Source: an uncultured Bacilli bacterium (GTDB taxonomy: Bacteria; Bacillota_I; Bacilli_A; RF39; UBA660). Taken from it: DNA of 64,000 bases. Each line of letters begins with the position of its first letter. The first letter of the stretch is position 1. Under the pieces are notes generated by a model. That model had not been told where the DNA came from. It was given only the letters and a program-made list of their open reading frames with translations, and made no database searches. Both the position numbers and the translations under genes were made by a program. Shown piece by piece: positions 14,384 through 44,827 of this stretch. The stretch covers positions 1,810-65,809 of the forward strand of contig CALVYF010000004.1 in assembly GCA_944372055.1 (NCBI GenBank), read 5' to 3'.

Positions 14384-14970
14384 ATAAATATGCTTTGATT
14401 CGCGAGATGAAGCAGTATGCAGAAGTTAATAATGTTCCTATTATGATGGATGAGGGGATTGATTTTCTTACTACATTTATTTTAAAAAATCATGTTAAGA
14501 ATGTTTTAGAGATAGGTACAGCCATTGGTTATTCTGCTATTATGATGGCTCTTGTTGATCCTAATCTTAAAATTACAACGATAGAAAGAGATGAAGTTCG
14601 TTATTTGGAAGCTTTAAAAAATATAAAAGCTTTTGGGTTGGAAGATAGAATTACATTAATTTATAATGATGCTTTTAATGTTAAATTGGATGAAAAGTTT
14701 GATTTAATATTTATCGATGCTGCGAAAGCACAAAATATTAAGTTTTTTGAAATGTTTGAACGCAATTTGGAGTATCGTGGAGCAATTGTTACTGATAATT
14801 TAAAGTTTCATGGCTTAGTAGATAAAAAAGAAGAAGAAATTAAAAGTAAAAATTTGAAAGCATTAGTTCGTAAGATTAAAGATTATATCGATTATTTGAA
14901 AACAAATGAAAAGTATAATACAGAGTTTTTTGAAGTGGGAGATGGAATTTCGGTTAGTGTGAGAAAGTAA
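14371..14970 (+). CDS. trmR: SAM-dependent O-methyltransferase (YrrM/TrmR-like)
   Basis: VLEIGTAIGYSAIMMA SAM motif and FIDAAK. Located between mltG and the U32 pair, as in the Bacillus yrrM position. Confidence 0.78.
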   Translation: MDMVDKYALIREMKQYAEVNNVPIMMDEGIDFLTTFILKNHVKNVLEIGTAIGYSAIMMALVDPNLKITTIERDEVRYLEALKNIKAFGLEDRITLIYNDAFNVKLDEKFDLIFIDAAKAQNIKFFEMFERNLEYRGAIVTDNLKFHGLVDKKEEEIKSKNLKALVRKIKDYIDYLKTNEKYNTEFFEVGDGISVSVRK

Positions 14971-14984
14971 TGGGGGTGAATCCT

Positions 14985-15722
14985 ATGTTTAATGTAGCAG
15001 AAGTAGAGACTAAAATATCTAAGAGGAAACCTATATGGATTATCTTTTGTATTCTTGTTGTAGTTATTGTTTCTTCTTTTGTTTTTTTTGTTTTGCTTTT
15101 TCCTAGAAAATTTGATTATCAAGATTTGTTAAAAAATAAGGAAAAAAATATTGTTTATTCTTTGGATTCTCTTGATGTTTTAGAAACAGATAAAGTCCCT
15201 GTAATTAATATTGATTCTTCTTTTATTGATGATATTAATTCTGATATTATGAATTATTACCAAGATTATTTAACGAAATTTACACAGGGATTTTTATATG
15301 AATATTCTGTTTCTGGTCCAGTGTTATCTATTTTAATTGTTTCACAACAACGTTATGCTGATGCTGAATATTCTGATATTTCTTATCACAGTTATAATAT
15401 TGATTTGGAAAAGATGGTATTACTTTCTGATAAAGATATTTTTGATATGTATAAAATTGATGAGGATACTTTACGGTATTTTATTACTTATAAATTTGTT
15501 GAATTTTATAATGATTTGATAAAACAAGGGTATTTTACTAAGGAGATGTGTGATTTTTCTTGTTTTATGGAATCTAAAAATATTGTTAATGTAATGAATG
15601 ATAATACGTATTATATTGAAGATGGAAAGTTAATTCTTTATAAACCATTTAATATTTATACTCCTTATAGTGAAGAGAAGTATTTTTCTTTGGATTCTTT
15701 CCGTTTTGTAGTAAAAGGTTAA
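14985..15722 (+). CDS. membrane-anchored extracytoplasmic protein, paralog of 17708..18499
   Basis: One TM helix (IWIIFCILVVVIVSSFVFFVLLF). Shares VPVINIDS, VLSILIV, ISYHSYNIDL and YYIEDGKLILYKPFNIYTPYSEE blocks with the 17708 product. No known family. Confidence 0.6.
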   Translation: MFNVAEVETKISKRKPIWIIFCILVVVIVSSFVFFVLLFPRKFDYQDLLKNKEKNIVYSLDSLDVLETDKVPVINIDSSFIDDINSDIMNYYQDYLTKFTQGFLYEYSVSGPVLSILIVSQQRYADAEYSDISYHSYNIDLEKMVLLSDKDIFDMYKIDEDTLRYFITYKFVEFYNDLIKQGYFTKEMCDFSCFMESKNIVNVMNDNTYYIEDGKLILYKPFNIYTPYSEEKYFSLDSFRFVVKG

Positions 15723-15734
15723 AGAGGTGATGGT

Positions 15735-16796
15735 ATGCCTTATTTGTATATTTTAGATTGTTCTGGAGATATTGATACTTGTTGTGCTGATTTTGGATTA
15801 GCTAATATTTTAGGAGCTATACAGAGGATTTTGAACATTATACATATTGTTGTTCCTATTATTTTAATGGTGGGATTAATTATACAATTTACGCAGATGG
15901 TTATTAATCCAGAGGATGATCGAAATCGTAAAAAGTCAAAAAGTTTAATTAATAGGGTTATGGCTACAGTTGTTGTCTTTCTTTTACCTACGATTGTGAA
16001 TGTTGCAGTTAATTTAGTATTTTCTGATTTTAGTTTTGCTTCTTGTTGGCATTCGGCAGAAATCAGTGAGGAAATGACATTGGCTATGGAAAATACTTTT
16101 ATATCTACTACGGATAAGAAACCTAAGAGCTTTATTACCATGCCGGAAGATTATGCTGATCCAAATGTTACTGCAACACCTGGAAATAGTAGTGATGGTA
16201 ATGGAAGTATTTTACTTATTGCAGGCCACTCTTATCCTCCTTACTGTAAGGGCTTTCCTGATGATTGTCGTGGTATGATTTCCTCTGGTTATGATGAAAC
16301 TGACCAAACGCGTATCTTAGTGAAGTTAATTCAATCTGAACTTAGTTCTTTGGGAGTTTCTTCTGATATTGCAAATGCTTTGATGGCTGGAAATTCTAAT
16401 GATATGAATACTTCTTTTTATCGTGAGTGTAGAAATGATTCTAGTTTATGTAATCAGTTTGACTGGGGCAAATATAAATATGTATTAGAGATTCATTTTA
16501 ATGCTTCTGGTAGTGGACGTGCGGCTGGTACTCAACTAGTCAAGAGAACTGGTAGTTATAGTACTCCTGCAGATCAAGCTATTGTTAATGCTGTGATATC
16601 TAATACTGGTCATCGTCAGTACTCTGATTATATTTATGGTGCTTTTAATATTGGGTATTTTATGAATTTAGGTGTCCCTGTTACTTATTTAGAAACAGAG
16701 TTTTATGATAATAAGCAGGCAATGGATACTTATAGTAGTAAAAAAGAACAGATTGCTAAAGATATAGCAAAGGTTATTCAACAGTATTATGGTTAA
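15735..16796 (+). CDS. N-acetylmuramoyl-L-alanine amidase (Amidase_3-like) fused to an N-terminal VirB2-like two-TM hairpin
   Basis: C-terminal motifs IAGHS, EIHFNAS and LETEFYDN are Amidase_3-like. The N-terminal 110 aa are CC-TM-charged loop-TM-CW, the same module as in 16878, 40264 and the C-terminus of 40713. Confidence 0.65.
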   Translation: MPYLYILDCSGDIDTCCADFGLANILGAIQRILNIIHIVVPIILMVGLIIQFTQMVINPEDDRNRKKSKSLINRVMATVVVFLLPTIVNVAVNLVFSDFSFASCWHSAEISEEMTLAMENTFISTTDKKPKSFITMPEDYADPNVTATPGNSSDGNGSILLIAGHSYPPYCKGFPDDCRGMISSGYDETDQTRILVKLIQSELSSLGVSSDIANALMAGNSNDMNTSFYRECRNDSSLCNQFDWGKYKYVLEIHFNASGSGRAAGTQLVKRTGSYSTPADQAIVNAVISNTGHRQYSDYIYGAFNIGYFMNLGVPVTYLETEFYDNKQAMDTYSSKKEQIAKDIAKVIQQYYG

Positions 16797-16877
16797 TTTT
16801 CTTTTCTTTTCTTTTTCTTAGATTTATAATAGAATAATGTTAGTTGTTAATTGCTCGAAGTAAGAGGTGGTGATATT

Positions 16878-17699
16878 ATGAGTGACTTAGTACAAGTTCT
16901 TAGTTGTAGTGAAGAGTTGGGTACTTGTTGTACAGATTATGGGTTGTTGACTATATTAGATATTTTGAGACAAATTCTAGATTTGATACAGATGGTTGCT
17001 CCTATTTTATTAATGACAGCTTTAGCAATTCAGTTTACTCAATTATTAATTAATCCAGATGATGATAAAAAGAAAAAAAGTTTGTTGAATAAATTTATTG
17101 CTATATTAGTATGCTTTTTTGTTCCATTTTTAGTAAATTTAGCCATTAGCTTAGTCCCCGAGGATATTGATTCTTTTCAATTAGGGGCTTGTTGGGATAC
17201 GGCTCGTATTTCTAGAGAGGTTTTGAAAAAAGAAAATAGTTCTTATGTTTCTACTACGGATAAAAAGCCACAAAGTTTTATTTTACAGTCTGATGATTAT
17301 AATCAACTTGATGTTACAACAGGGGAAGGAAGTGCAACTGGTAAAGCTATTGTTGAGTATGCAAAGTCTTTTGTTGGCGGTAGATATTGCTACGGAGGTA
17401 AAGATCCTAATGTATGTGCCGATTGCTCTGGTTTTGTTTCTTATGTTTTTGCGCATTTTGGTATTAATTTAATTTCGCAAACTGATTCTATGTGGAATCA
17501 AACAAATATGTATACTTTGGTAACCGATGGTAATATTAAAGCTGGTGATGTTGTTATGTACTATGGACATGTTGGGATTCTTACTGGTAATGGAGAAGAA
17601 ATGGTTCATGCTTCTAGTCCTTCTACAGGAATAAAAATATCCCCTTCTTATAATTATAGGACCGTACGTGGTATTATGAGGATAAAAGGTGTTAATTAG
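16878..17699 (+). CDS. NlpC/P60 peptidoglycan endopeptidase fused to an N-terminal VirB2-like two-TM hairpin
   Basis: C-terminal motifs YCYGGKDPNVCADCSGFVSYVF (catalytic Cys) and GHVGIL..VHAS. The N-terminal module is clearly alignable with that of 15735. The ATG at 16878 follows AGAGGTGG. Confidence 0.75.
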   Translation: MSDLVQVLSCSEELGTCCTDYGLLTILDILRQILDLIQMVAPILLMTALAIQFTQLLINPDDDKKKKSLLNKFIAILVCFFVPFLVNLAISLVPEDIDSFQLGACWDTARISREVLKKENSSYVSTTDKKPQSFILQSDDYNQLDVTTGEGSATGKAIVEYAKSFVGGRYCYGGKDPNVCADCSGFVSYVFAHFGINLISQTDSMWNQTNMYTLVTDGNIKAGDVVMYYGHVGILTGNGEEMVHASSPSTGIKISPSYNYRTVRGIMRIKGVN

Positions 17700-17707
17700 G
17701 AGGAATT

Positions 17708-18499
17708 ATGTTTGATGTCGTTCAAAATCAGGGGGGAAAAAGAAAAAGAAATTTTAAGTTTCGAAAAAGGAATTTTTCTTTTCACATTTCTTTTCCTGTG
17801 AAAAAGGTTCTTATCTGGGTTGGCGTTATTCTTTTAGCAATATTTTTAATTGGCTATTATTTATATAAAAACTATTATAGTAATTATAATTATATCAAAG
17901 AAGATTCTTCACAATATTTAGTTTATACTGTTGATACTTCTATGAATAATCAAAATATGCATAATGAAATTCCCTATATTAATATTGATAGTGATGATGC
18001 AAGATTAGTGAACCAGACGATTCAGCGATATGCAGAGTCATTTTTAAAGAATAAGAATAATTTAATGGTTTATGATTCACAGTTAAATGGAGAGGTTTTA
18101 TCTATTTTACTTCGTATGTCTGATTATAGTGCTGGTTATTCTTTTCCTGATATTTCTTTTCATACATATAATTTTGATTTAAATGATCAAACATTGATGT
18201 CAGATGAAGAATTATTAGCGCTTTTTGATGTGACAGAAGAGGAAGTAGAAAAGAAAATAGCGAGTCAGTTTAAGAAATACTATCAGCAAGAAGTGAAAAA
18301 AGGTTATCTAGTTTCACAAGAATGTGATTATGATTGCTTTTTAGCTTGGAGAGGAATTCAGAATTATAATTATATGGACTCTGTTTATTATTATGTAGAA
18401 AATGGTAGATTACTTGCGTATCGTCCATTTACAATATATTCAGCTTATGGAGAAGAAGAATTTTTTGATGATGAAAGTTATGCTTTTAGTATTACTTAA
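17708..18499 (+). CDS. membrane-anchored extracytoplasmic protein, paralog of 14985..15722
   Basis: Basic N-tail and one TM helix. Motifs IPYINIDS, VLSILLR, ISFHTYNFDL and YYVENGRLLAYRPFTIYSAYGEE. Confidence 0.6.
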   Translation: MFDVVQNQGGKRKRNFKFRKRNFSFHISFPVKKVLIWVGVILLAIFLIGYYLYKNYYSNYNYIKEDSSQYLVYTVDTSMNNQNMHNEIPYINIDSDDARLVNQTIQRYAESFLKNKNNLMVYDSQLNGEVLSILLRMSDYSAGYSFPDISFHTYNFDLNDQTLMSDEELLALFDVTEEEVEKKIASQFKKYYQQEVKKGYLVSQECDYDCFLAWRGIQNYNYMDSVYYYVENGRLLAYRPFTIYSAYGEEEFFDDESYAFSIT

Positions 18500-18586
18500 A
18501 TAGTATAACTTTTTTTCTTTTATCTTGTATTTCTTTTTGTTTTCATTTATTATATTATTGTATGATTATAATAGGATGTGATAGCT

Positions 18587-22093: not shown

Positions 22094-22122
22094 GGTTGAG
22101 ATTTCTCAACCTTTTCTTTTTT
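22094..22122 (+). terminator. rho-independent terminator closing Locus A
   Basis: Stem GGTTGAG/CTCAACC with a 4-nt loop, followed by TTTTCTTTTTT. Confidence 0.6.
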
Positions 22123-33987: not shown

Positions 33988-34452
33988 ATGAATAAAGCGA
34001 TGTTAACCGTTGGTATTATCATTTTAAGTTTAGCTACTTTATTAATGATTAATATTATTTCCAATTATTCATCAGGTAGTGAGTTGGATTACTACCTGGT
34101 GAAGGAAACATCAGAAGCAGCTATGGTTGATGCTATTGATGTAAAGTATTATCGTGAAAATGGATTACTTCGTATTGATAAAGAAAAATTTGTTGAGAGT
34201 TTTGTTAGAAGATTTGCTGATTCTGTAGATACTACTAGAAATTATCAACTTTCTTTCTATGATTTAAATGAAGTTCCACCAAAAGTAAGTGTCAAAGTAG
34301 ATTCTTCTACAGTACTAAGTTTTAAGGGTTCTGATTTGGAGATGTCTACAAAATTAGATGCTATTTTAGAAAATACTTATAAAACTGATCCATTAGTTAC
34401 TACAGAGATTAATGATCCAGATAGTGATTTTGGTAAACCAGTGGAAGAATAA
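33988..34452 (+). CDS. small membrane-anchored protein, possible TadE/TadF-like pseudopilin
   Basis: N-terminal hydrophobic helix MLTVGIIILSLATLLMINII with a 120-aa domain. Located just upstream of cpaB. The function is inferred from context only. Confidence 0.35.
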   Translation: MNKAMLTVGIIILSLATLLMINIISNYSSGSELDYYLVKETSEAAMVDAIDVKYYRENGLLRIDKEKFVESFVRRFADSVDTTRNYQLSFYDLNEVPPKVSVKVDSSTVLSFKGSDLEMSTKLDAILENTYKTDPLVTTEINDPDSDFGKPVEE

Positions 34453-34471
34453 AAAGGAAGGTGAGGATAAA

Positions 34472-35290
34472 ATGGGAAATCTCAGTGTTGGAATAAAAAA
34501 GTTTTTATCCAATAAAAATACAGTTACTGTTGTTGGTGTGGTTGTTGCTGTTTTGGTATTATATATAGCATATAATATGCGTGTTCAAGCAGCTGTAAAT
34601 CCTATTAGTGTTCCGTATGCGACAGAGCAAATTGAGCCAGGGACACAAATTACAGAGGATATGGTAAGTACAATGGATGTTCCTCCTTCAATGCTTGAAG
34701 GAGATGTTATTAGAAATCAAGCTGATGTTATTGATAAATATTCTAATGCAGATACATTAATACCTCAGGGAAGTTTATTTTATACTAGACAAGTAGTTGA
34801 AAAAGAACAATTACCGGCTAATATTATTTTAGATTATCCTAAGGGTTATGTTTTATATAATATGCCTGTTAATACTGAATCTACTTATGGTAATTCTATT
34901 TATCCAGGAAATTATATTGACATTTATTTAAAAATAACTAGAAAAAGTACTGGTGATCAACAAGCTGTTACTAATGAAGATAGTGAGTTGATGCAGTATG
35001 GTAAGTTTATTCAGAATGTTAAAGTTTTAGCTGTTAAAGATTCTTCTGGTCAACCTGTATTTTCTAATTTGGATGAGCAAAGAACTCCAGCGATGTTAGT
35101 ATTTGCTTTACCTGAGGAGTATTATATTTTATTAAAGAAAGCAAGTTATTTAACTTTGTATGATTCTGAGCTTGTTCCAGTTCCAACTAATGAAAGTTTA
35201 CAAGATAAACCTGATGATTTGGAAATGAGTAGTGAAAGTCTTCGTGATTGGATTGAAACTGTTACTTACTGGGACGAAAGTATGGGGTAG
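34472..35290 (+). CDS. cpaB: Flp pilus assembly protein CpaB/RcpC-like (SAF domain)
   Basis: TM anchor followed by a SAF-like segment (EQIEPGTQITEDMVSTMDVPPSMLEGDVI) and VKVLAV. Confidence 0.6.
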   Translation: MGNLSVGIKKFLSNKNTVTVVGVVVAVLVLYIAYNMRVQAAVNPISVPYATEQIEPGTQITEDMVSTMDVPPSMLEGDVIRNQADVIDKYSNADTLIPQGSLFYTRQVVEKEQLPANIILDYPKGYVLYNMPVNTESTYGNSIYPGNYIDIYLKITRKSTGDQQAVTNEDSELMQYGKFIQNVKVLAVKDSSGQPVFSNLDEQRTPAMLVFALPEEYYILLKKASYLTLYDSELVPVPTNESLQDKPDDLEMSSESLRDWIETVTYWDESMG

Positions 35291-35319
35291 AAATTAACGA
35301 ATAAAAAGGAGTTGGGCAT

Positions 35320-36747
35320 ATGAATGAGAACATATTTGATAAGTTAGATTTTGGTCCTTTGCGTCCTTTGCTTGATAATGATGATATTACGGATATTTCA
35401 TTCGATAATAATGGTCAGATTTGGGTAAGGTCTCTAACACAAGGATCTTTAAGAGTAGAGGTTCAAGGATTAACTCCTGAATTTATTGAGAAGTTAGCTT
35501 TTCAATGCTCTAATGTTATGGGAACTACATTTAACAATGCTAAACCATTCTTGGATGCTGAATCAGCAGAGTTACGTTTGAATTTCGTTCATCCTTCTAT
35601 TGCTACTAACGGAATTGCGATGGTTATTCGTAAAACTCCTGCTAAAATTCGTTTGGAAAAGGATAAGTTACTTAAAGATGATTATTTTACACAAGATATT
35701 CATGATATTTTGATTAAATGTGTGGAAGGTCACTGTAATATTATTGTCTGTGGAGAGACTGGTTCTGGTAAAACAGAATTTGTTAAGTACTTGGCGAGTC
35801 ATACGCGTACAAATGAAAAGATTATTACTATTGAAGATACTTTAGAACTTCATTTGGATAAAATTTTCCCTCAAAGAGATATTGTTGCGATGAAGACTAA
35901 TAATGTTGCTAGTTATACAGATGTGCTTGTTACTTGTATGCGTCAGAATCCTAAATGGATATTATTATCTGAGGTTCGTAGTGCAGAAGCTGTTTCGGCA
36001 GTTCGTAACTCTATTTCTTCTGGACATAATATTTTATCAACCATTCATGCTGATAAAGCTTCTGCTATTCCTTATCGTATGTATAGTTTGATGGAAACAG
36101 ATTTGGATGTTAATCAATTTTTAAATACTATTTATCGATATATTCAAATTGGTGTTCATATTAAGGCTTATTATAGTAAGGAATTGGGAAAATTTCATCG
36201 TGAGGTTGATGAAGTTGCTGAATTCTATGTTGATGAGGAAAATAAACCGCAATGTAGAATTATATATCAAAAATTGTTTGGACAGGAACCGGTGTTACGT
36301 AAACCTAGTCCACATTTAATTGAATATTTAGAAAATCAAAATATTGATATTAACTCTATTACTGAACATTTAAGCGATGATTTACCGTTTAAAGATGATG
36401 AAGAGAAGGAAGAATATATGGAGAGTCATAAAGCAGAGGATGATACTACTGGTGATTCTGTGGAGACTACTAACGATGAAGAAGTTCCTCAAGTTGTAAA
36501 TATTACTCCTGTAGTGCAACCAACAGTACAAAGTGCTCCTGTTGTTAATTCAACAGTCCCTAATTCGAGTGCTGTACTAGCTGTAACACCGACGGTTCAA
36601 GTTCCAGCAGCTATGAGTGTAGAACCATCTATACAACTTGCTCCTACTGTGGAGACATCTCCAAATACTTCCACTATACCTACTCCTAATGAAGCACTAA
36701 ACGTTACGTCACCTGTAGATTTTTCTTCTTTAGGTAATTTAGAGTAG
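35320..36747 (+). CDS. cpaF: CpaF/TadA-type secretion ATPase (T2SSE family) with a P/T/V-rich C-terminal tail
   Basis: Walker A VCGETGSGKTEF, TIEDTLEL, Walker B-like WILLSEVR and His box STIHA. The last 120 aa or so are low-complexity. Confidence 0.85.
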   Translation: MNENIFDKLDFGPLRPLLDNDDITDISFDNNGQIWVRSLTQGSLRVEVQGLTPEFIEKLAFQCSNVMGTTFNNAKPFLDAESAELRLNFVHPSIATNGIAMVIRKTPAKIRLEKDKLLKDDYFTQDIHDILIKCVEGHCNIIVCGETGSGKTEFVKYLASHTRTNEKIITIEDTLELHLDKIFPQRDIVAMKTNNVASYTDVLVTCMRQNPKWILLSEVRSAEAVSAVRNSISSGHNILSTIHADKASAIPYRMYSLMETDLDVNQFLNTIYRYIQIGVHIKAYYSKELGKFHREVDEVAEFYVDEENKPQCRIIYQKLFGQEPVLRKPSPHLIEYLENQNIDINSITEHLSDDLPFKDDEEKEEYMESHKAEDDTTGDSVETTNDEEVPQVVNITPVVQPTVQSAPVVNSTVPNSSAVLAVTPTVQVPAAMSVEPSIQLAPTVETSPNTSTIPTPNEALNVTSPVDFSSLGNLE

Positions 36748-36763
36748 AGAGGGGTGTAAATTT

Positions 36764-37666
36764 ATGTATATAGAAGAGTTGATTTTTTTACTTGTTTTAG
36801 TTGTTGTTATTGTTCTTTATCGTAATTATAAAGGACAAAATGTTGGTAAATTTATTACTTCTCAAGTACAAGGAGTGTATGATAAATTTGCACCTTATTC
36901 TTTTAAAGTTGTACGTGAAAAGACAAAAGAGTTAGGGCAGGAATATACTCCTAGACAATATTTAATTCAAGTTATTATTATGGGAGCTTTTGCTGCCGTA
37001 GTTAGTTATCTATATTTCTATAATTTATTTATTTCATTGGTTTATATGATTGTTGTAATCATGTTTATACCATATTTATCTTATTTACGTTGTAAACGTG
37101 TTTATAGTGAATTTATTTTTGAACAAATTCAAGTTTATACTTCTAATACTATTATGGAATTTGCTACTACGCAGTCTTTTGTCAAAGCTTTGGAGGGTGT
37201 TCGTAACTCTGGTATTTTAGAAGACCCAGTAAAAAGTGATGTTGATCATATGATTGAACTTGCTTATCAGAATGGTAGTATTGAAGAATCTCTTACTTAT
37301 ATGAGTGGTTTGTATCCTTATTATATTGTAAAGAATATGCATCAGTTGTTTTTACAAATTACTAAAGAGGGTGCTAGAAACTCTATGGAGTCTTTGGATA
37401 ATATGCAGCTTGATATTGATATGCTTGTTGAAAGTGTTTATCGTGACCGTATTGAACGTGCTTCTTTTCATAAATCTTTTTTACAATTTGGTATTATGCT
37501 TTATTTATTAGTTATGTTAACTCAATATTTGTTAGGGCGTGAAACGTATTTAATTATGTTAGAACGTTGGTATGTAAAACTTCTACTGCACGGAGTCTTA
37601 ATTATTAATACATACTTCTTATTAAAGGGTGAAAAATATTATAATGAGAATGTAGGTGCTGAATAA
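36764..37666 (+). CDS. tadB: TadB-like type II secretion system F-family membrane protein
   Basis: Polytopic protein immediately after cpaF. It has a soluble helical segment (ALEGVRNSGILEDPV...NGSIEESL) between TM blocks, as in GspF/TadB. Confidence 0.55.
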   Translation: MYIEELIFLLVLVVVIVLYRNYKGQNVGKFITSQVQGVYDKFAPYSFKVVREKTKELGQEYTPRQYLIQVIIMGAFAAVVSYLYFYNLFISLVYMIVVIMFIPYLSYLRCKRVYSEFIFEQIQVYTSNTIMEFATTQSFVKALEGVRNSGILEDPVKSDVDHMIELAYQNGSIEESLTYMSGLYPYYIVKNMHQLFLQITKEGARNSMESLDNMQLDIDMLVESVYRDRIERASFHKSFLQFGIMLYLLVMLTQYLLGRETYLIMLERWYVKLLLHGVLIINTYFLLKGEKYYNENVGAE

Positions 37667-38451
37667 TGGTAGAGATTGTTATAGTTGGTGCTATTATTAT
37701 ATTTGTTTTAATATATAATAATACGATTGATAAGAATAAGTTTATAGCTGATAATGAAAAGTATTTTGATATTTTAAGAGAAGAAGATTATAACTTTTTA
37801 GTATATGCTAGATATGGTGAAGAAGTTGATCCTAATATATTATTTAGAAAAAGAATATATTATGCTGTTTTAGTAGCTATTGTGTTTCTATTTATATTTT
37901 TAAATCAGTTATCATTTCTTAATGTTGTGTTTTGTATTGTTGTAGCAGCTCTTGTTTTTAAGATGCCGTATACACAATTAAAACAGTTTTATAAGGCACA
38001 TTTACATGATATTGATGTTATGTTGCCATATTATTTAAAGAGTTTGGAAATTTTAATTCAACATTATACAGTTCCGGTTGCCTTAGGTAAGTCTATTGAT
38101 GATGCTCCTGATATTTTTAAACCTGGACTTCGTCGATTGATTGAACGTATTAACTCCGGGGATTCTACTATAGATCCATATATGGAGTTCGCTAATACGT
38201 ATCCAGTACGAGATTCTATGCGTATGATGCGTTTGTTGTATCGTTTAGGTCTTGGTTCTCAGGAAAGAAAACAAGAACGTTTAATGATGTTTTCTAGAAC
38301 TGTTTCAAATCTACAGAACAAAGCACGTGAAACTAAATATAAAGAACGTCTTAATCATATGGAGAGTCAAACTATGGTCATGCTTGTAGTTACTGGTATG
38401 GGTACTATGGTTATTATTTTGGTTTCTATGATGATGATGTTTAACATGTAA
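37666..38451 (+). CDS. tadC: TadC-like type II secretion system F-family membrane protein
   Basis: Start overlaps the tadB-like stop. TM-soluble-TM layout with LGKSIDDAPDIFKPGLRRLIERINSGDSTIDPYMEFA. Confidence 0.55.
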   Translation: MVEIVIVGAIIIFVLIYNNTIDKNKFIADNEKYFDILREEDYNFLVYARYGEEVDPNILFRKRIYYAVLVAIVFLFIFLNQLSFLNVVFCIVVAALVFKMPYTQLKQFYKAHLHDIDVMLPYYLKSLEILIQHYTVPVALGKSIDDAPDIFKPGLRRLIERINSGDSTIDPYMEFANTYPVRDSMRMMRLLYRLGLGSQERKQERLMMFSRTVSNLQNKARETKYKERLNHMESQTMVMLVVTGMGTMVIILVSMMMMFNM

Positions 38452-38466
38452 AGTAAGTAAATTTTA

Positions 38467-38495
38467 TTGTAAAAGTGAAATTATGTTGGTATAAT
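38467..38495 (+). promoter_or_regulatory. sigma-A type promoter upstream of the Flp-like pilin gene
   Basis: TTGTAA, a 17-nt spacer, then TGgTATAAT (extended -10). Confidence 0.5.
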
Positions 38496-38535
38496 ATATA
38501 ATGTATATAGAATAGGAAAGGATGTGTATGTCTTA

Positions 38536-38709
38536 ATGAAAGCAGCAACAGGTGAATTAAATTTAACAGTAATTACTCTTATTGCTATTGCGGCAGTAAT
38601 TGGTTTTTTCTGGATTATGTGGCCTAATATTCAAGGTTCTATTAACTCTCAATGGGAGAATATTTCAAGTGATTATAGTGGATATATTGTTTTAGAACAT
38701 AATAAATAA
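38536..38709 (+). CDS. candidate Flp/type IVc-like small pilin
   Basis: 57 aa: short leader MKAATG followed by the hydrophobic helix ELNLTVITLIAIAAVIGFFW. It has its own promoter and sits in the Tad context. It lacks the classical G/xxxxEY motif. Confidence 0.45.
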   Translation: MKAATGELNLTVITLIAIAAVIGFFWIMWPNIQGSINSQWENISSDYSGYIVLEHNK

Positions 38710-38724
38710 AAGGTGGTGTAGGAA

Positions 38725-39171
38725 ATGCGGGATGCTTTAGGTGGTGTTGTCAATTTAGCAATGATTGTTGTATTCCTAGTTTTGGTGTGTGGATATTTAG
38801 CATTTAATGTTAATTATACTAAAGCATTCCGTGTTAAAAACTACATTATCACTTCTTTAGAACAGTATGAAGGTAATTGTAAAAGTGGTACTACTTGTTC
38901 TAATAAAATACAGGCATATATTAAGCAGGTAGGTTATAGCGCTCCAGAATTTCATTTAGAGGATGATTATATTTGTAATTATGGATATTGTTATAAAGAA
39001 TTTAAAGTTTCTAAAGAAACTGGTGATGCTGTTTCTGAGTCTAAAGAGCAAGTTTACTATAGAGTTGTTACTCAGATTAATATTGATATACCAATTATCA
39101 ACAGAATTATGCCTGGTTTAAAGATTTTTCAGATTTCTGGTAATACAAAGTTAATAACACCGTTTAAATAG
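38725..39171 (+). CDS. TadE-like pseudopilin candidate
   Basis: N-terminus MRDALGGVVNLAMIVVFLVLVCGYLAF resembles the TadE N-terminal hydrophobic segment. The domain contains Cys. Confidence 0.4.
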   Translation: MRDALGGVVNLAMIVVFLVLVCGYLAFNVNYTKAFRVKNYIITSLEQYEGNCKSGTTCSNKIQAYIKQVGYSAPEFHLEDDYICNYGYCYKEFKVSKETGDAVSESKEQVYYRVVTQINIDIPIINRIMPGLKIFQISGNTKLITPFK

Positions 39172-39185
39172 GAGAGGTGGCTCTT

Positions 39186-40208
39186 ATGAATGTTATTGTT
39201 AGTAATCAGCAACGTAATGTTTTATCAGGATTAGATATTGATATAATAAAAAGTATTTCTGGTGAATATGATGCAACTGAGTTAGTAGAAATGTTTAAAA
39301 ACTTTTTCTATAATAAAATGATTTTGGATGTGACTGCAATTAAAGATTACCATAGTGTTAAAAGTTTTCAGACGATAGCTATGGGGTTAGATGTAGAAAA
39401 AATTGTTTTCTTTTTGCCAGAAGGAAGTGATGTTTGTACTTCTAATTTTTTGTCTAAATTAGTTTCTATGGGAATTTATAATTTTACTACGAATATAGAA
39501 GGAGTAAAATATTTATTAGAGCATCCAAATACTTATAAACAGGTTGCACATATTCAACAATTAAATGATGTATCTAATGTAAATTCAGTTATGGCAAGTG
39601 TTGAAAGTAGTTCTAATCCCTCTGATAGTTCTACTAGGTTTCGTGGCTCTATCGTAATAGGGGTACGAAATGTTACAGAGGATGCTGGAGCAACTACTTT
39701 TATTTATATATTAAAAAAGGAACTAAAAACTTATTTTGGAGATACTATTATTGCTTTAGAACTTAATAAAAATGATTTTCAGTTTTTTGGTGACAAAAAT
39801 ATGATATCTATTTCTTCTGATCAATTGCAGGGTGCTTTAGCACGCTATTCTGGTGCTTCGGTTCTTTTAGTTGATTTAAATGATTATCCTGATGATTCTT
39901 TCTGTGGAGAAGTTTTGTATTTATTGGAACCATCCACGATTAAACTTAATAAGTTGATTCGGAGAAATCGTAATATTTTTTCAAAACTTCAACATCAAAA
40001 AATTGTTTTAAATAAAAGTTTACTTTCCAATAAGGATATTATGGATTTTGAATATGAAGCGAAAATAAAAGTTTTTTATAATATGCCTCCTCTAGATGAG
40101 AGAAAGAAAAATCCTGTTTTGGAAGACTTTTTATCTCGTTTAGGTATTGTTGCAAAAAGGGAAGAGAAGAAAGAAACAGGTAAAATTTTTGGTTTATTTC
40201 GTAGGTAA
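39186..40208 (+). CDS. TadZ/CpaE-like protein (receiver-like N-domain plus degenerate ParA/MinD-like domain)
   Basis: IVIGVRNVTEDAGATTFIYIL occupies the position of the deviant Walker A but lacks the KGG..GK(T/S) residues. The size and position fit TadZ. Confidence 0.4.
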   Translation: MNVIVSNQQRNVLSGLDIDIIKSISGEYDATELVEMFKNFFYNKMILDVTAIKDYHSVKSFQTIAMGLDVEKIVFFLPEGSDVCTSNFLSKLVSMGIYNFTTNIEGVKYLLEHPNTYKQVAHIQQLNDVSNVNSVMASVESSSNPSDSSTRFRGSIVIGVRNVTEDAGATTFIYILKKELKTYFGDTIIALELNKNDFQFFGDKNMISISSDQLQGALARYSGASVLLVDLNDYPDDSFCGEVLYLLEPSTIKLNKLIRRNRNIFSKLQHQKIVLNKSLLSNKDIMDFEYEAKIKVFYNMPPLDERKKNPVLEDFLSRLGIVAKREEKKETGKIFGLFRR

Positions 40209-40210
40209 TG

Positions 40211-40239
40211 TTGACAAACATTTTATTTTAAGATAAGAT
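40211..40239 (+). promoter_or_regulatory. sigma-A type promoter at the head of the T4SS module
   Basis: TTGACA, a 17-nt spacer, then TAAGAT, directly after the tadZ-like stop. Confidence 0.55.
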
Positions 40240-40263
40240 TATTTTATTGAAGGAGAGTTGTTT

Positions 40264-40620
40264 ATGTTAGATTTATTTCAATTAGGAGTAGTTGGAAATG
40301 TAGATGACAACTGCGGAGGATTAGAGCCTATTGTTAGAATTATTAAGAAAGGTGTATTTCCTATTGTTCAAATTGGTATTCCAATTTTATTAATTGTATT
40401 TGGTACTATCGATTTAGGTAAAGCTGTTATTTCTAGTGATGAAAAAGAAGTAAAACAAGCACAAAGTCGTTTAATTAAAAGATGTATTTATGCAGTTGCA
40501 ATCTTCTTTATTACTACTTTAGTAAGTTTGATTATGTCTTTAGTTTCTACTGGTACTGAAGGTGGAGACGGTGAAGCTGATACTGCTGGATGGGCTAACT
40601 GCTGGAATAGTATTAAATAG
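40264..40620 (+). CDS. VirB2/TrbC-like (PrgF-position) two-TM hairpin protein, candidate T4SS pilin
   Basis: 118 aa: NC-TM1 (IPILLIVFG)-charged loop (SSDEKEVKQAQSRLIKR)-TM2-NCW. First gene after the promoter, with RBS AAGGAGAG and a terminator behind it. Confidence 0.55.
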   Translation: MLDLFQLGVVGNVDDNCGGLEPIVRIIKKGVFPIVQIGIPILLIVFGTIDLGKAVISSDEKEVKQAQSRLIKRCIYAVAIFFITTLVSLIMSLVSTGTEGGDGEADTAGWANCWNSIK

Positions 40621-40636
40621 GAAAATGATAAAATTA

Positions 40637-40665
40637 AATAGCAAAGTAATTGCTATTTTTTTTTT
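40637..40665 (+). terminator. rho-independent terminator or attenuator after the hairpin pilin-like gene
   Basis: 8-bp stem AATAGCAA/TTGCTATT with a 5-nt loop, followed by T9. Confidence 0.65.
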
Positions 40666-40712
40666 ATTTTGATATACTTATTCTGTATGATTGTATATAT
40701 GGAGTGGTGACA

Positions 40713-41912
40713 GTGAAACAGTTTAAATTTTTCTTATTTATCTTTGTCTTTGGTATGTTGTTTTTTGTTCCATATAATACGAAAGCCTTAGAAAATAAAG
40801 TGGTTAGTTGTGATTATCAGTTTACTAATATTCATGGAGAAAAAATTGAATTAGAATATAAGGTGTATTCTGATGGTACTGTCAAAAAGCCTTTTACGGA
40901 TGGTACTTTATATGCAAATGATGGCATTTCTTGGTATCATGCTGATCGTTTTTCTTCAGTTTATTATAATGCAGCAAAACTTAATAGTTATACAATAACT
41001 TGTCCTTCTATTTATGTTCAAGAAAATGATTCTGGTGTTACTGTTTATCCTTATCCACTGAATAGTAGTTCATGTACGGGTCGCTGTTATAATATTACAT
41101 CAGCTTCTCCTAAGCTTTCTAGCTGGGCTAAAGATATTGGGATAAAATCAAAGAGACTTTTGTCAACTTGCACGGGTTCTAGCATGGGATTTTATAATCG
41201 TAAAAGTTATGTTTTACCATATTTTAGGCTTTATTCTGATGGTACAAAAGAATGGAGTGTAGATGGAGAATTATATGTTCCTATTGCTAATGCGATTACT
41301 GGTAAAGTAGGAGATGATAAGTTTTCTATTACAGTAAACGATTCTTTGATTAATTCTATTTTTTCTTCATCAAAGACTACTTGTCCTGCGCAGATTTATC
41401 GTTGTGTTACAAAGACTAAAAATGGTTATTTTTATGAATTGTCCTCTAGTGCTAATCAATGCAGTAAAGATGAGTTGGGTAATAGTGATAGTCAAGGATT
41501 TGGTTCTAAGTATTTTGAAGGTGCTTTTGGAGATCCAACTGATGATAGCAATAATAGCAATAGTTCTGATGTTTTGACGGATTTGCAAGAGAATATCAAT
41601 TCTTATAATCAAAATCCAGAGTGTAATTCTCTTTTGGGAGATGTAGGCAACCCAGAATCAGTTGCTTGGTTATTGCAACAACTTTTAAATTATGTTAAGA
41701 TTTTAGGACCAATTTTGGTTGTTATTCTTAGTAGTTTAGATTTTGCTAAAGCTATTATTGCCAGTGATGATGATAATATGAAAAAAGCGGAACGTAAATT
41801 AATGATTCGTTTAATTTTGGCGGTTGCACTATTTTTGATTCCTACACTTGTTAGTGTTTTACTTAATGTTTTTGGAATCACTTCTGATAATCAAATTTGT
41901 GGTTTGAAATAA
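40713..41912 (+). CDS. secreted Cys-containing domain fused to a C-terminal VirB2-like hairpin
   Basis: The GTG at 40713 lies 8 nt after GGAG. Signal peptide KQFKFFLFIFVFGMLFFVPYNTKA. The C-terminal 90 aa (ECNSLLG...GPILVVILSS...DDDNMKKAERK...FLIPTLVSVLLNVFG..QICG) match the hairpin module. Confidence 0.6.
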   Translation: MKQFKFFLFIFVFGMLFFVPYNTKALENKVVSCDYQFTNIHGEKIELEYKVYSDGTVKKPFTDGTLYANDGISWYHADRFSSVYYNAAKLNSYTITCPSIYVQENDSGVTVYPYPLNSSSCTGRCYNITSASPKLSSWAKDIGIKSKRLLSTCTGSSMGFYNRKSYVLPYFRLYSDGTKEWSVDGELYVPIANAITGKVGDDKFSITVNDSLINSIFSSSKTTCPAQIYRCVTKTKNGYFYELSSSANQCSKDELGNSDSQGFGSKYFEGAFGDPTDDSNNSNSSDVLTDLQENINSYNQNPECNSLLGDVGNPESVAWLLQQLLNYVKILGPILVVILSSLDFAKAIIASDDDNMKKAERKLMIRLILAVALFLIPTLVSVLLNVFGITSDNQICGLK

Positions 41913-41927
41913 AGGTAGGTGATATTA

Positions 41928-43955
41928 ATGACAGATACTTCTACTGCAGATGTGTTTCGTAATTTAGGAAGAACTTTGGGACAAATTTTTAATGTTTGTA
42001 TTTATGCGCTTTTAGGATGGATGTATCAGATATTCTTTAACGTTGCTGGTGCTCAATTGTTTGAAAATGAAACTATTAAGAATTTTTATGGACGTGTTCA
42101 ATTGATTATTGGTGTGTTCATGGTATTCAAAGTGGCAATTTTTATTTTGCAGGGAATTGTGAATCCAGATAAATTTATGGATCCAAAAGAGGGAATTGGT
42201 AATTTTATTACTAGAGTAGTTATCGCTCTTGCTTTACTTACTGTCTTGGTTCCTATTAATATTCCTAATGTTGAAAGTGCTAATTCTTACGAAAAATATC
42301 TTAATAATAATGGTCTTTTGTTTGGTACTTTATATTCTTTACAAGATAGAATTTTGTCTAACAATACACTTGGTAGGCTGATATTAGGTACTACCGATGA
42401 TGCTGATGACAATACAGGAGAACAAGATACTTCTGGTATGACCGAAGCTGAAATTCAGACACAAAAGTTAGAAAGATCTTCTCGAATTTTTACTTCAACA
42501 ATTTTAAAGGGATTTTTAAGAATTAATTTACTCCCTGAGGAAGTTCGTAAATCAGATGATGAAAATGATCAAGAAAATTGGTATTGTGGTGATCATATTG
42601 GGCAAGATGAAAAGGATGCTATTAATATTTATAGACAATTAGATGTTGCTCCTGAAATTTTACTTGATGATGCAATTGTTAAAGCAAAATGTGATTTGAA
42701 TCAGTCTTTTGGGGGCGCCATAGGTAATTTCTTTAATATCGGAGGGGATGCAAAATATTTATTTGCTTTTAATTGGTGGCCGATTGCTATGATTGTTGGG
42801 ATAATCTTTTTAGTTATCATGGTCGGATTTACTGTTGATATTGCAATCAGATCTATTAAACTTGCAATTTTACGTTTGATAGCCCCTATTCCTGTAATTA
42901 GTTATATTGAACCAAAATCATCGAAAGATGGTGGAATGTTTGCTTCATGGGTCAAGGCTTTAACATCGACTTATTTAGATTTGTTTTTGAGATTAGCTAT
43001 TGTATATTTTGTTATTTTCTTAATACAAGATATGATTGTTAATGGTGTTGTTATTAATGAAGCTACTGGTTCTGTTGGAATATTTTCTATTATCTTTATT
43101 TGGATTGGTTTATTCTTCTTTGCTAAGATGGCTCCTAAATTTATTAAAGATGCCCTTGGATTAAAAGGTTCTATGTCTAATGTTGGTCTTAGTGGTATTT
43201 TAGGTGCTGCTGGTGCCATTCGTCAAGGAGGATCAGTGATGGATGCGGCTTGGGCTGCTAGTGATGCTGCTAATGCACAGGTCCAATCATATAATCAAGG
43301 TAAGCCTGCTCCTAGTGTTGGCATGGCTTTTAACGCAGGTAGAGATTTAGCAGCACAGATGATGACCGGTGATGAGCGTATGAATCATCAAAAAATGTCT
43401 CGTGGTTGGTGGCAATTGAGGGAGATGGGTATTACACCTCAAGGTGCTGATAAAGTCCATAAGGCTGCTATTAATGCGCAGGCATTTAGCGATCGTATGT
43501 CTTCAGACTTTGTTGCTGGTGTTGGACAATACATGGATAAAAATGGACAAATGCATGATTATCAGTATAAAGATGATCAAGGTAATCTTCATAGTGTTAT
43601 GGATTGGGCTACTGATGAAAACGGTAATAGAGTTCGAGTTCTTAACAAAGATAAAGCTTCTCTTGCTTTGGCACAACAGAGAGAACTTGCTGGAAAACTT
43701 GCTTCTCGTGATAAGAAAATTGACGCAGAAATGCATAGGACTGGTCAAGCTCGTGGATTTCGAGATTCTGTACGTAGACCAAATGATAAATCAACTCATC
43801 CACTTACTCAAGGGATTACGGATGTATATTTGTCTAGACGAAAAGCGCAGACTTATGATCCAGTTGAGGATAAATATGGGGAAAAAGGTGAAGATAATTA
43901 TATGTTGCGTGGTGGTACTCATGCTACAGGATATGATATTACTGAGCATTACTAA
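41928..43955 (+). CDS. VirB6/TrbL-like polytopic channel protein (PrgH/TcpH position)
   Basis: At least 6 TM helices, a long hydrophilic C-terminal domain, and a position between the pilin-like genes and VirB3/VirB4. The call rests on context and topology only. Confidence 0.5.
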   Translation: MTDTSTADVFRNLGRTLGQIFNVCIYALLGWMYQIFFNVAGAQLFENETIKNFYGRVQLIIGVFMVFKVAIFILQGIVNPDKFMDPKEGIGNFITRVVIALALLTVLVPINIPNVESANSYEKYLNNNGLLFGTLYSLQDRILSNNTLGRLILGTTDDADDNTGEQDTSGMTEAEIQTQKLERSSRIFTSTILKGFLRINLLPEEVRKSDDENDQENWYCGDHIGQDEKDAINIYRQLDVAPEILLDDAIVKAKCDLNQSFGGAIGNFFNIGGDAKYLFAFNWWPIAMIVGIIFLVIMVGFTVDIAIRSIKLAILRLIAPIPVISYIEPKSSKDGGMFASWVKALTSTYLDLFLRLAIVYFVIFLIQDMIVNGVVINEATGSVGIFSIIFIWIGLFFFAKMAPKFIKDALGLKGSMSNVGLSGILGAAGAIRQGGSVMDAAWAASDAANAQVQSYNQGKPAPSVGMAFNAGRDLAAQMMTGDERMNHQKMSRGWWQLREMGITPQGADKVHKAAINAQAFSDRMSSDFVAGVGQYMDKNGQMHDYQYKDDQGNLHSVMDWATDENGNRVRVLNKDKASLALAQQRELAGKLASRDKKIDAEMHRTGQARGFRDSVRRPNDKSTHPLTQGITDVYLSRRKAQTYDPVEDKYGEKGEDNYMLRGGTHATGYDITEHY

Positions 43956-43983
43956 TAGAATTTTTAATGGAGTGTGATATATA

Positions 43984-44301
43984 GTGAATTATTTAATACC
44001 TGCTAATACGAAGAAAGGTCAATTAATCTTAGGATTATTTAGACCTTTCGACTTGATTTTATTTTTATCCGGGGTTATGGTTACTGTTATATTACTGGCT
44101 TTTTTACCACTTACTAATACTTGGCTTACTATTTTAATAGTTAGTCCGGCTGTTATTTGTGGATTTCTTGTAATGCCAGTACCTTATTATCATAATATTT
44201 TAAATATTATTGTTGAGATATATGAGTATTTTTCTAATCCTCAGACATATCATTGGAAAGGTTGGTGTTTCATGAATGAAAAAGAAAATCGTAGGAAGTA
44301 A
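43984..44301 (+). CDS. PrgI/VirB3-like small membrane protein
   Basis: 105 aa: IPANTKKGQLILGLFRPFDLILFL followed by two TM helices. It overlaps the VirB4 N-terminal gene. Confidence 0.6.
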   Translation: MNYLIPANTKKGQLILGLFRPFDLILFLSGVMVTVILLAFLPLTNTWLTILIVSPAVICGFLVMPVPYYHNILNIIVEIYEYFSNPQTYHWKGWCFMNEKENRRK

Positions 44302-44827
44302 TTTTACAGAGAATTGGTTACCTGTTAAAGCGATTCAAAATGGTATGATTATTACGTATGATAATTTAAAAGTTTCTGGAGTTAAAATTTCTCCACGTAA
44401 TATCTTTATTTTAGATCCACAAGCTCAAGATAATGTATTAATTAGTTTAAAGAATTTCTATAATATGATAGATTTTGAGTTTTGGTTAGTAGTTGCAGAT
44501 AGACCTGTAGATATTTCTGTTTATATGTCTCAACTACAACTTTTATACAATGAAACACAATCTCCTGCTATACGCAAATTAATTATGCAAGATATTGATA
44601 AGGGAAATACATTTATTAATAATAATATTGTTGATACTGAGTATTATTTCTTATTTAAAGAGAAAGATTCAGATGTGGTTCAAAAGAAAGTTCGTATGTT
44701 AATCCAAGGACTTGCTAGTTGTGGACTTAATGCTTCACAAACTACGAATGATGATTTAAGAATTATTTTGGATAATTTCTTAAACGGGGGTAAAACTACT
44801 GAATTTGGGACGGTGATGCCTGTATGA
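44276..44827 (+). CDS. VirB4-family ATPase, N-terminal fragment (separate ORF)
   Basis: FTENWLPVKAIQNGMIITYDNLKVSGVKISPRNIFIL matches the conserved start of Gram-positive VirB4/TcpF/PrgJ-type proteins. It ends in an ATGA overlap with the next ORF. Confidence 0.6.
   Translation: MKKKIVGSNFTENWLPVKAIQNGMIITYDNLKVSGVKISPRNIFILDPQAQDNVLISLKNFYNMIDFEFWLVVADRPVDISVYMSQLQLLYNETQSPAIRKLIMQDIDKGNTFINNNIVDTEYYFLFKEKDSDVVQKKVRMLIQGLASCGLNASQTTNDDLRIILDNFLNGGKTTEFGTVMPV

Follow-up and report, generated by a model that had tools for sequence, protein, structure and literature searches.

Two adjacent genes in a 64,000-nucleotide stretch of DNA from an uncultured Bacilli bacterium (hereafter the window; all coordinates are window positions) encode different peptidoglycan hydrolases that carry the same N-terminal module, a membrane hairpin related to pilin-like proteins of a type IV secretion system (T4SS). 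The genes are H1, a hairpin-amidase (15735..16796, plus strand, 353 amino acids), and H2, a hairpin-NlpC/P60 endopeptidase (16878..17699, plus strand, 273 amino acids from the ATG at 16878). With roughly even confidence, we favour an interpretation in which H1 and H2 serve a housekeeping role as wall hydrolases tethered to the membrane and active outside the cytoplasm, their tether deriving from a T4SS pilin.

The window has a G+C content of ~30% and carries nearly all of its genes on the plus strand. In H1, whose ATG is preceded by the ribosome binding site (RBS) AGAGGTG, the hairpin module (approximately residues 1-114, nt 15735-16076) is followed by an Amidase_3 domain (PF01520; residues 159-349, nt 16209-16781), which matched the Pfam model with 41 bits (cut-off 27) over model positions 1-173 of 174. 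The H1 motifs GHS, DETDQT, EIHFNAS and ETEF fit the zinc and catalytic residues of Amidase_3, as judged by inspection and from knowledge of the family; no close solved structure was found for the H1 amidase domain. In H2 the hairpin (nt ~16884-17222) precedes an NLPC_P60 domain (PF00877; residues 177-268, nt ~17379-17654; 57.3 bits, cut-off 23). Alignment of H2 with solved NlpC/P60 domains showed that the Cys of DCSG and both His residues are kept (DCSG, HV and VHA are conserved in the alignment with 8er5), and an 86%-identical protein is named 'C40 family peptidase' by NCBI. The longest open reading frame (ORF) of H2 spans 16851-17699 and opens with TTG at 16851; the true start is almost certainly the ATG at 16878, because it is preceded by the RBS AAGAGGTGGTGA and because a database protein of 273 amino acids that starts at this ATG is 100% identical. 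H1 is thus a predicted N-acetylmuramoyl-L-alanine amidase and H2 a predicted NlpC/P60 endopeptidase, both probably acting outside the cytoplasm. A first-pass annotation of this DNA had described similar N-termini on unrelated lytic C-termini, and both parts of this description held: BLASTP aligned the two proteins with 42% identity over 186 amino acids (E 1e-46) in their N-terminal part only, and the C-terminal domains belong to different Pfam families, Amidase_3 and NLPC_P60. In a close relative (L001 10001-11061, ~90% identity) the amidase gene is broken into a hairpin ORF of 115 amino acids and an amidase ORF of 236; a frameshift, a stop codon or a faulty assembly could account for this break.

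The module common to H1 and H2 takes up ~110-145 N-terminal residues and resembles two proteins encoded in the T4SS locus of the window, a stand-alone pilin-like hairpin protein of 120 amino acids (40258..40620, plus strand) and a protein of 420 amino acids whose hairpin is C-terminal (40650..41912, plus strand; hairpin residues 341-412, nt ~41670-41885). The same annotation had noticed this resemblance, and profile comparisons confirmed it: a profile of the H1 and H2 N-termini matched the 40258 protein with an hhalign probability of 96% (E 1.6e-9) and residues 339-407 of the 40650 protein with 95.7% (E 8e-9). A hidden Markov model (HMM) of 30 family sequences matched, at E≤1, exactly four of the 418 six-frame segments of the window, namely H1 and H2 (E 1e-43 and 1e-44), the 40258 protein (E 1e-14) and the 40650 protein (E 1e-11), with the many other membrane proteins of the window serving as a specificity control. 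The noise level of transmembrane (TM) hairpin profiles is about E 1e-3, as seen with chemokine receptors and G-protein-coupled receptors (GPCRs) among PDB sequences and with the 7tm and MscL models of Pfam. Since the family HMM matches only these four segments, with E-values far below that level, the profile evidence indicates that the match of H1 and H2 to the T4SS-locus hairpins is not generic similarity between TM helices. A Pro in helix 1, a short charged loop and a flanking Cys pair are common to H1, H2 and the T4SS-locus hairpins.

The label 'pilin' rests on several weak but consistent lines, namely sequence matches to pilin families and the position of the stand-alone paralogues next to VirB6/VirB3/VirB4. 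Against PF18895 (T4SS_pilin), H1, H2 and the 40258 protein scored 25.4, 22.6 and 20.5 bits, all under the gathering threshold of 26.6, while some relatives pass it (27.0-27.7 bits, E 2e-9 to 3e-9). Full-length matches to PF18895 recurred among the fused relatives (46 of 88 and 19 of 37) and the T4SS-locus hairpins (9 of 10); the label is also precomputed on many database relatives, some of which carry PF00877 and PF18895 together. NCBIfam returned weak matches of the hairpin to Mbov_0395 (pilin-like conjugal transfer protein), Mbov_0396 and pLS20_p028. The AlphaFold2 (AF2) model of the module (hairpin pLDDT ~84) places a first helix at residues 21-58, a 4-residue loop, a second helix at 63-92 and a third from residue 102, giving the two long hydrophobic helices and short charged loop of PF18895 proteins. 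A Foldseek search of the hairpin model against the PDB returned no VirB2 or TraA, only insignificant hits to PsbZ, a type III secretion system needle and designed proteins, the fold being too simple to discriminate. The hairpins form three subfamilies, with identities of 35-41% within the fused, 49% within the stand-alone and 37% within the C-terminal group, and of 21-27% between groups; the fused subfamily is marked by a C-x6-CC-x-D-Y-G-L tail and an A-C-W motif. Marginal hits of the hairpin HMM (E 1e-3 to 1e-5) also fell on the first TM pair (~residues 47-114) of VirB6-like proteins in L052, L070, L080 and L105-L122, and may be noise or distant kinship.

A Cys before helix 1 and a Cys after helix 2 are found in 75 of 76 N-terminally fused, 24 of 26 stand-alone and 14 of 15 C-terminal hairpins, and the pair is invariant in the family alignments. 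The N-terminal tail has an odd number of Cys residues (1 or 3) in 151 of 158 fused proteins, and the extracytoplasmic total would therefore be 2 or 4, as disulfides would need. The sequence pattern suggests that the pair probably forms a disulfide closing the hairpin on the outside; such a clamp might be a loose functional analogue of the head-to-tail cyclisation of TrbC/VirB2. The hairpin loop is net positive (NPDD-KKK) and the N-tail acidic, and a classical signal peptide lies ahead of the first Cys in some relatives and in the T4SS pilins of L070. This charge pattern and the signal peptides fit a hairpin with both ends outside (N-out/C-out), in which helix 2 would export the enzyme. When H2 orthologues of 60-75% overall identity are compared by region, identity is 71-85% in the tail, helices, loop and post-TM segment, 65% in the catalytic domain and 44% in the linker. 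Conservation matching that of the catalytic domain, together with the near-invariant Cys pair on its flanks, indicates that the hairpin is more than a passive anchor.

H1 and H2 are the two inner genes of a cassette, X1-H1-H2-X2. X1 (14970..15722, plus strand), the apparent cognate of H1, encodes a single-pass membrane protein with a predicted extracytoplasmic alpha/beta domain; X2 (17708..18499, plus strand) is its paralogue (33% identity, E 6e-37) and the apparent cognate of H2. The cassette sits between an O-methyltransferase (MTase) gene directly upstream (14371-14970, plus strand; Pfam Methyltransf_3 in L001), itself preceded by the conserved housekeeping gene mltG (13313-14383, plus strand; Pfam YceG in L001), and two U32 peptidase genes. 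In the wider neighbourhood the genes run IreB-RuvX-DUF1292-MltG-MTase ... U32-U32-HD-GreA, and the arrangement RuvX-DUF1292-MltG-MTase, then X with a hairpin hydrolase in one to three copies, then U32-U32-HD-GreA, recurs in ~24 loci; the NlpC/P60 form with its cognate X is a conserved insertion of the mltG operon in some 24-30 genomes. Spacing within X1-H1-H2-X2 is tight (12, 54 and 8 nt) and the RBSs are strong; the first terminator-like site after the cassette is at 22094, and a promoter scan gave a hit count not above that of shuffled sequence. Identities of H2 and X drop roughly in step with those of the flanking genes, but faster, X being the fastest-evolving gene of the mltG locus. Other fused hairpin genes come after nusA-infB-rbfA or priA.

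X belongs to an orphan family with an invariant C-x3-C and one TM helix (residues 22-43 in X1), and its AF2 model (pLDDT 84) shows an alpha/beta ectodomain. No relative of X was found in Pfam, in NCBIfam, by a profile search of PDB sequences or by Foldseek against the PDB (E≤0.001). Of the 76 hairpin-enzyme genes, 30 have an X-like gene no more than 150 bp away and the other 46 have no X-like neighbour; all 30 X-adjacent enzymes are of the NlpC/P60 or amidase type, 275-330 amino acids long, and each has its own diverged X. Tandem arrays of fusions have no small genes interleaved. A guess from sequence patterns, that X is an RsiV/DUF3298-like lysozyme-binding domain, was rejected, as Foldseek gave no PDB match and the PDB profile search was empty. 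The idea of a holin or signal-anchor-release (SAR) endolysin was also dropped: PHROGs matches fell only in the catalytic domains and none in the hairpin, and there are no phage genes nearby.

The hairpin family is large. A k-mer-indexed homologue search with the N-terminal module gave just 3 close relatives, and an exhaustive profile search of 1.84 billion cluster representatives was therefore needed; it returned 4253 representatives at E≤1e-3 and 454 at E≤1e-10. Among the best 150 family members, 88 have at least 200 amino acids, with the module N-terminal in all but two and located at residues 1-135 in most of these long matches. Domains fused to the module in the 88 proteins were, by Pfam, NLPC_P60 (41), Peptidase_C39_2 (10), CHAP (6), Peptidase_C70 (4), M23 (3), Amidase_5 (3), GDSL (2), and one each of Amidase_3, S11 carboxypeptidase and an ATLF-like protease. 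Outside the mltG context the fusions include Glucosaminidase (5), SGNH/GDSL and other esterases, YkuD L,D-transpeptidase, CHAP, C39_2 and S11, and about half have no Pfam match. Those fused domains that could be identified were nearly always cell-wall or esterase-type enzymes.

A genome scan built on a 6-sequence alignment yielded 73 loci, each taken with 10 kb on either side of the match; the fused-hairpin loci and the T4SS loci were drawn from different genomes. The hosts are nearly all uncultured metagenome-assembled genomes (MAGs) from gut or rumen, labelled Bacilli, Tenericutes, Erysipelotrichaceae, Bacillales or Candidatus Faecimonas, and two stand-alone hairpin matches come from MAGs labelled Eubacteriales. 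Several genomes supply 4-5 hairpin loci each, and the MAG CAMOGG has at least 12 fused hairpin genes. Two contigs of MAGs labelled Muribaculaceae (L027, L048) show the RuvX-DUF1292-MltG synteny of the Bacilli type together with hairpin hydrolases, which is probably binning contamination.

If H1 and H2 are tethered housekeeping enzymes, the two-helix hairpin would hold each of them at the outer face of the cytoplasmic membrane. The short acidic, Cys-bearing N-tail would lie outside, helix 1 would cross the membrane, the positive loop would stay in the cytoplasm, and helix 2 would cross back and act as the export signal for the catalytic domain, the Cys residues before helix 1 and after helix 2 forming a putative disulfide clamp on the outside. 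The hairpin would be a diverged paralogue of the PF18895/VirB2-like proteins of the clade's own chromosomal T4SS, which is of the type found in pLS20 and in integrative and conjugative elements (ICEs) of Mycoplasma, and would have been recruited as the standard N-terminal tether of a wall-enzyme toolkit in these uncultured, reduced-genome gut Bacilli. H1 with X1 and H2 with X2 would be co-transcribed with mltG, the enzymes most likely serving routine wall growth, turnover or cell separation, and X may regulate its cognate enzyme, as an inhibitor or an activator. Most lyt/cwl endopeptidases and penicillin-binding proteins are reported to have disappeared in the RFN20/RF39/ML615J-28 ancestor (PMC10868615), a loss that would leave room for a lineage-specific replacement set of autolysins.

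Several observations weigh against this reading. The hairpin is conserved far beyond the need of a passive anchor (71-85% against 65% for the catalytic domain), which points to a specific partner or to self-assembly, and that partner could be the T4SS. The repertoire of amidase, NlpC/P60, M23, lipase-like, C70 and ATLF-like domains, together with the adjacent X, resembles effector-immunity sets. The hairpin enzymes and the T4SS are both in the window, 17 kb apart, and the disulfide is proposed for a gut, presumably anaerobic, organism.

An association with the T4SS or a pilus, which we judge unlikely though deserving of weight, would make the hairpin a working pilin domain, the enzymes either docking on the VirB6/VirB4 platform or being minor subunits of a filament; exposed on the outer surface, they would breach the wall of their own cell to make way for the machine or act on that of a neighbour. 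The homology to the T4SS-locus hairpins is real, the hairpin is under strong constraint, and the cysteine clamp is common to the enzymes and the T4SS pilins. Moreover, the 40650 protein has a large extracytoplasmic domain fused to its hairpin, at the opposite end, and from proteins of its type in the T4SS locus it follows that hairpin-plus-domain subunits belong to the T4SS. The weak matches of the hairpin to the pLS20_p028, Mbov_0396 and Mbov_0395 families and the presence of both systems in one window point the same way. However, in the 93 T4SS loci that we examined (13 genomic and 80 metagenomic, 1.09 Mb, up to 10 kb from VirB4), none (0/93) contained an N-terminal enzyme fusion: the loci carry stand-alone and C-terminal hairpins only, the apparent 'N-terminal' HMM hits being the marginal VirB6-like matches. 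H1 and H2 are 24-27 kb from VirB6/VirB4, and the fused hairpins are a separate subfamily. Fusions to L,D-transpeptidase and DD-carboxypeptidase make little sense for boring holes, and in one MAG at least 12 copies are dispersed among housekeeping genes. The T4SS also has a hydrolase of its own without a hairpin, a SpoIID + C39_2 protein encoded inside the T4SS locus of the window (46642, plus strand), and the NlpC/P60 proteins within the T4SS loci L057 and L062 likewise have none. Somewhat less probable again, in our view, is a hairpin that acts as a genuine VirB2-like pilin domain, polymerising or docking on the platform, with wall enzymes mounted on a T4SS-derived structure.

The first-pass annotation had offered three roles for the enzymes: co-assembly with the T4SS, targeting to it to bore through the wall, or delivery as its cargo. 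Its underlying observation stands, that a shared pilin-like module, homologous to proteins encoded beside VirB6/VirB4, is carried by unrelated lytic domains. Gene context lends support to none of the three roles, given the absence of such fusions from the T4SS loci, the separate subfamily, the housekeeping neighbourhoods, the hairpin-less hydrolases of the T4SS loci and a fused toolkit that includes the synthetic or maturation enzymes YkuD and S11. The annotation had itself named a module found on many proteins without T4SS association as the outcome that would speak against it, and our results come close to that, with the caveat that the fusion partners identified are nearly all cell-wall or esterase-type enzymes.

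We regard it as improbable that the genes are antibacterial effector-immunity pairs, in which a constant N-terminal trafficking module would carry variable toxins and X would shield the producer's wall. The architecture is indeed polymorphic, one constant module preceding many lytic or lipase-like C-termini; next to each of H1 and H2 lies a separate X paralogue, diverged, anchored in the membrane and extracytoplasmic; the genes making up the cassette beside mltG differ between genomes; and X evolves faster than any other gene of the locus. A Sec/YidC-type hairpin with an exported enzyme would, however, be ill-suited to a cytoplasmic substrate recognised by VirD4. A Pfam scan found no XVIPCD-like or other known secretion signal, and the constant module is N-terminal and embedded in the membrane. 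Furthermore, H2 orthologues are syntenic and track species, the position within a housekeeping operon is fixed, and most fusions (46 of 76) lack an X-like neighbour, as do tandem arrays any interleaved small genes.

Slightly less credible still is a variant in which the protein is processed: helix 2 and the motif before the following Cys would be an internal lipoprotein signal, and Lgt/LspA would lipidate the Cys and cut before it, releasing a free pilin-like hairpin of ~100 amino acids and a lipid-anchored enzyme. The four residues ending at the Cys after helix 2 fit the lipobox-like pattern (L, V, I, F or M; A, S, T, V, I or G; G, A or S; C) in 117 of 158 (74%) fused proteins, for example as LGAC, ISAC, VSAC, LSAC or IAGC, with FASC in H1 (16040-16050) and LGAC in H2 (17180-17195), and the positive loop before helix 2 resembles an n-region. 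Yet the other 26% depart from the pattern, having K, R, N or T at position -1; a stretch of 5-8 polar residues stands between the hydrophobic helix and the motif; and the site, at about residue 105, lies behind a second TM helix and a polar spacer. To our knowledge there is no precedent for a lipobox ~105 residues into a protein. In the stand-alone T4SS pilins the Cys is retained although no lipobox precedes it, and the odd Cys count of the N-tail favours a disulfide with the Cys after helix 2.

Finally, that the pilin resemblance is only a compositional likeness between TM hairpins and the module an unrelated generic anchor would agree with the sub-threshold PF18895 scores of single sequences, the similar scores of GPCR and MscL noise (the family profile hits PDB chemokine receptors at E 1e-3) and the lack of a pilin match in Foldseek, but is very hard to believe when the family HMM picks out, at E≤1, only four hairpin proteins among 418 segments rich in membrane proteins, reaches E 1e-11 to 1e-14 on the T4SS-locus proteins, far under the noise of ~1e-3, when the helix-1 Pro, loop and flanking Cys pair are held in common, and when PF18895 recurs in full length in 9/10 T4SS-locus and 46/88 plus 19/37 fused proteins.

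The Tad-like plus T4SS locus of the window (34412..52150, plus strand) has the gene starts CpaB-like 34412, VirB11/CpaF-like ATPase 35320, VirB6-like 41919, VirB3-like 43984, VirB4 N-terminal piece 44276, VirB4 44824 and VirD4 49796, all on the plus strand. Directly upstream of the CpaB-like gene is a DUF5411 gene (33988-34452, E 4e-49), which relatives also have at the start of their Tad/T4SS locus. The order is CpaB-like, VirB11/CpaF-like ATPase, two polytopic proteins, p148, p343, the stand-alone hairpin or hairpins, one or two C-terminal-hairpin proteins, VirB6-like, VirB3-like, VirB4 in two further pieces, the hydrolase and VirD4. Combined in the locus are a Tad-like module (CpaB/RcpC-like, VirB11/CpaF-like ATPase, two polytopic proteins) and a Mycoplasma-ICE/pLS20-like T4SS. 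This order and the downstream flanks (rhodanese, a VTT-domain protein and RmuC) are conserved (window 34412-53341; L052-L070, L075-L154). Scans of the locus with Pfam and NCBIfam found no relaxase or integrase; it is a chromosomal fixture and not an obvious mobile element. Relatives of VirB4 are encoded on at least 428 metagenomic stretches, and VirB4 is 73-96% identical in the 80 loci retrieved. VirB4 (43984-46617) is spread over three ORFs, of 105, 183 and 597 amino acids, which match positions 2-96, 101-276 and 294-891 of NF045975, the 894-amino-acid model of Mycoplasma ICE VirB4; since the split is kept in ~72-80 related loci, it does not mark a pseudogene.

T4SS loci usually have two stand-alone hairpins, and the window has one (40258), whose orthologues adjoin VirB6/VirB4 in the loci examined, often as tandem pairs. 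The C-terminal-hairpin proteins (15 from the genome scan and 36 others) consist of an apparent N-terminal hydrophobic leader, as judged from the sequence of the window protein, an uncharacterised domain of 200-340 residues and the hairpin. Fourteen of the 15 from the genome scan lie in T4SS loci, the exception being in L051. They mirror the arrangement of the enzyme fusions and could be minor or tip subunits.

In the window, the X-hydrolase cassette is extended by two genes, one for an 875-amino-acid protein with a prepilin-type N-methyl domain and repeats (18578-21205, plus strand; N_methyl 32 bits, Flg_new, TIGR02532) and one for a 290-amino-acid protein with no assigned function (21220-22092, plus strand). 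Both are present in L001, L002 and L007 and absent from L008-L016, and are later additions to the cassette in close relatives only. Very large proteins (728-1341 amino acids) with a prepilin-type N-methylation motif and cysteine-rich repeats are encoded next to or near hairpin-hydrolase genes in L001-L003, L007, L017, L030, L043, L047 and L073. Surface proteins of this clade may have a second kind of anchor in pilin-type N-terminal helices.

Membrane-tethered autolysins and T4SS pilin-like proteins are known already; a cysteine-clamped, pilin-derived hairpin as a common module of wall enzymes appears to be undescribed in the literature that we searched, and text searches, which were limited, found no description of pilin-hairpin enzyme fusions. 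The family supplies specific candidates for the growth autolysins of uncultured RF39/RFN20-like gut Bacilli, which are reported to be without the canonical lyt/cwl enzymes, and evidence for T4SS pilin-like genes in Bacillota, beyond Patescibacteria. VirB2 and VirB5 have been stated to be absent from Gram-positive T4SSs except those of Patescibacteria (December 2025 review, PMC12857230), where T4SS pilins were found through PF18895 (10.1101/2025.01.22.634366), and the pLS20 family has been described as being without VirB2 (PMC8557374). The findings set two possibilities side by side, the exaptation of a secretion-system subunit as an anchor and the physical organisation of wall enzymes by a T4SS-related structure; the strong constraint on the hairpin, like the orphan X, suggests a further interaction. 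Should the pilin domain polymerise or dock, these Gram-positive gut Bacilli would mount much of their wall-enzyme repertoire on a chromosomal, apparently relaxase-less T4SS derivative, T4SS pilins would extend beyond Patescibacteria among monoderms, and the fusions would be the first of their kind between such a pilin and enzymes.

Among known systems, the closest to the module are the PF18895 pilins of Patescibacteria and Mbov_0395 of Mycoplasma ICEs, which have the same two hydrophobic helices and short charged loop, and in some cases a signal peptide; the clade's stand-alone paralogues adjoin VirB6/VirB3/VirB4, and similarity to PF18895 and NF045849 recurs. Unlike these proteins, for which no filament is known in Bacillota, H1 and H2 have an enzyme of 150-240 residues after the hairpin, lack a signal peptide, score under the curated cut-offs, form their own subfamily and are encoded outside the T4SS locus, in which the 40258 and 40650 proteins lie. 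In pLS20_p028 (NF045890) and Mbov_0396 (NF045889) an N-proximal hairpin is likewise followed by a larger domain, and the H1 and H2 hairpins score 28 and 21 bits, far under the cut-offs of 150 and 70; those proteins are encoded in conjugation operons, and we know of no enzymatic domain in either. The effectors of the Xanthomonadales X-T4SS are also peptidoglycan hydrolases or lipases with adjacent partner genes, in their case for immunity proteins, and a T4SS in the genome. They are, however, soluble proteins of a diderm host, recognised by VirD4 through a C-terminal XVIPCD, whereas H1 and H2 have an N-terminal hairpin and no such C-terminal domain.

Pairs of autolysins and regulators (CwlO-FtsEX, LytE/CwlO-IseA, amidase-EnvC/NlpD, MepS-NlpI) likewise combine a wall hydrolase with a dedicated envelope partner encoded nearby, and include NlpC/P60 D,L-endopeptidases as growth autolysins. 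X differs from those partners in having no detectable similarity to them in sequence or fold, and the tether of H1 and H2 is a two-helix hairpin instead of a coiled coil, LysM or lipid anchor. CwlT of ICEBs1, PrgK of pCF10, TraG of pIP501 and Orf14-type proteins of Tn916 are encoded in a transfer operon and have a single N-terminal TM helix or signal sequence. They resemble H1 and H2 as membrane-anchored NlpC/P60, amidase or muramidase enzymes acting outside the membrane, and the catalytic domain of H2 matches solved Tn916-like hydrolases (4hpe, 9ubf) and housekeeping ones to a similar degree. In contrast to them, H1 and H2 are encoded in an mltG operon and carry a pilin-like hairpin, and the T4SS of the window is equipped with its own SpoIID + C39_2 hydrolase.

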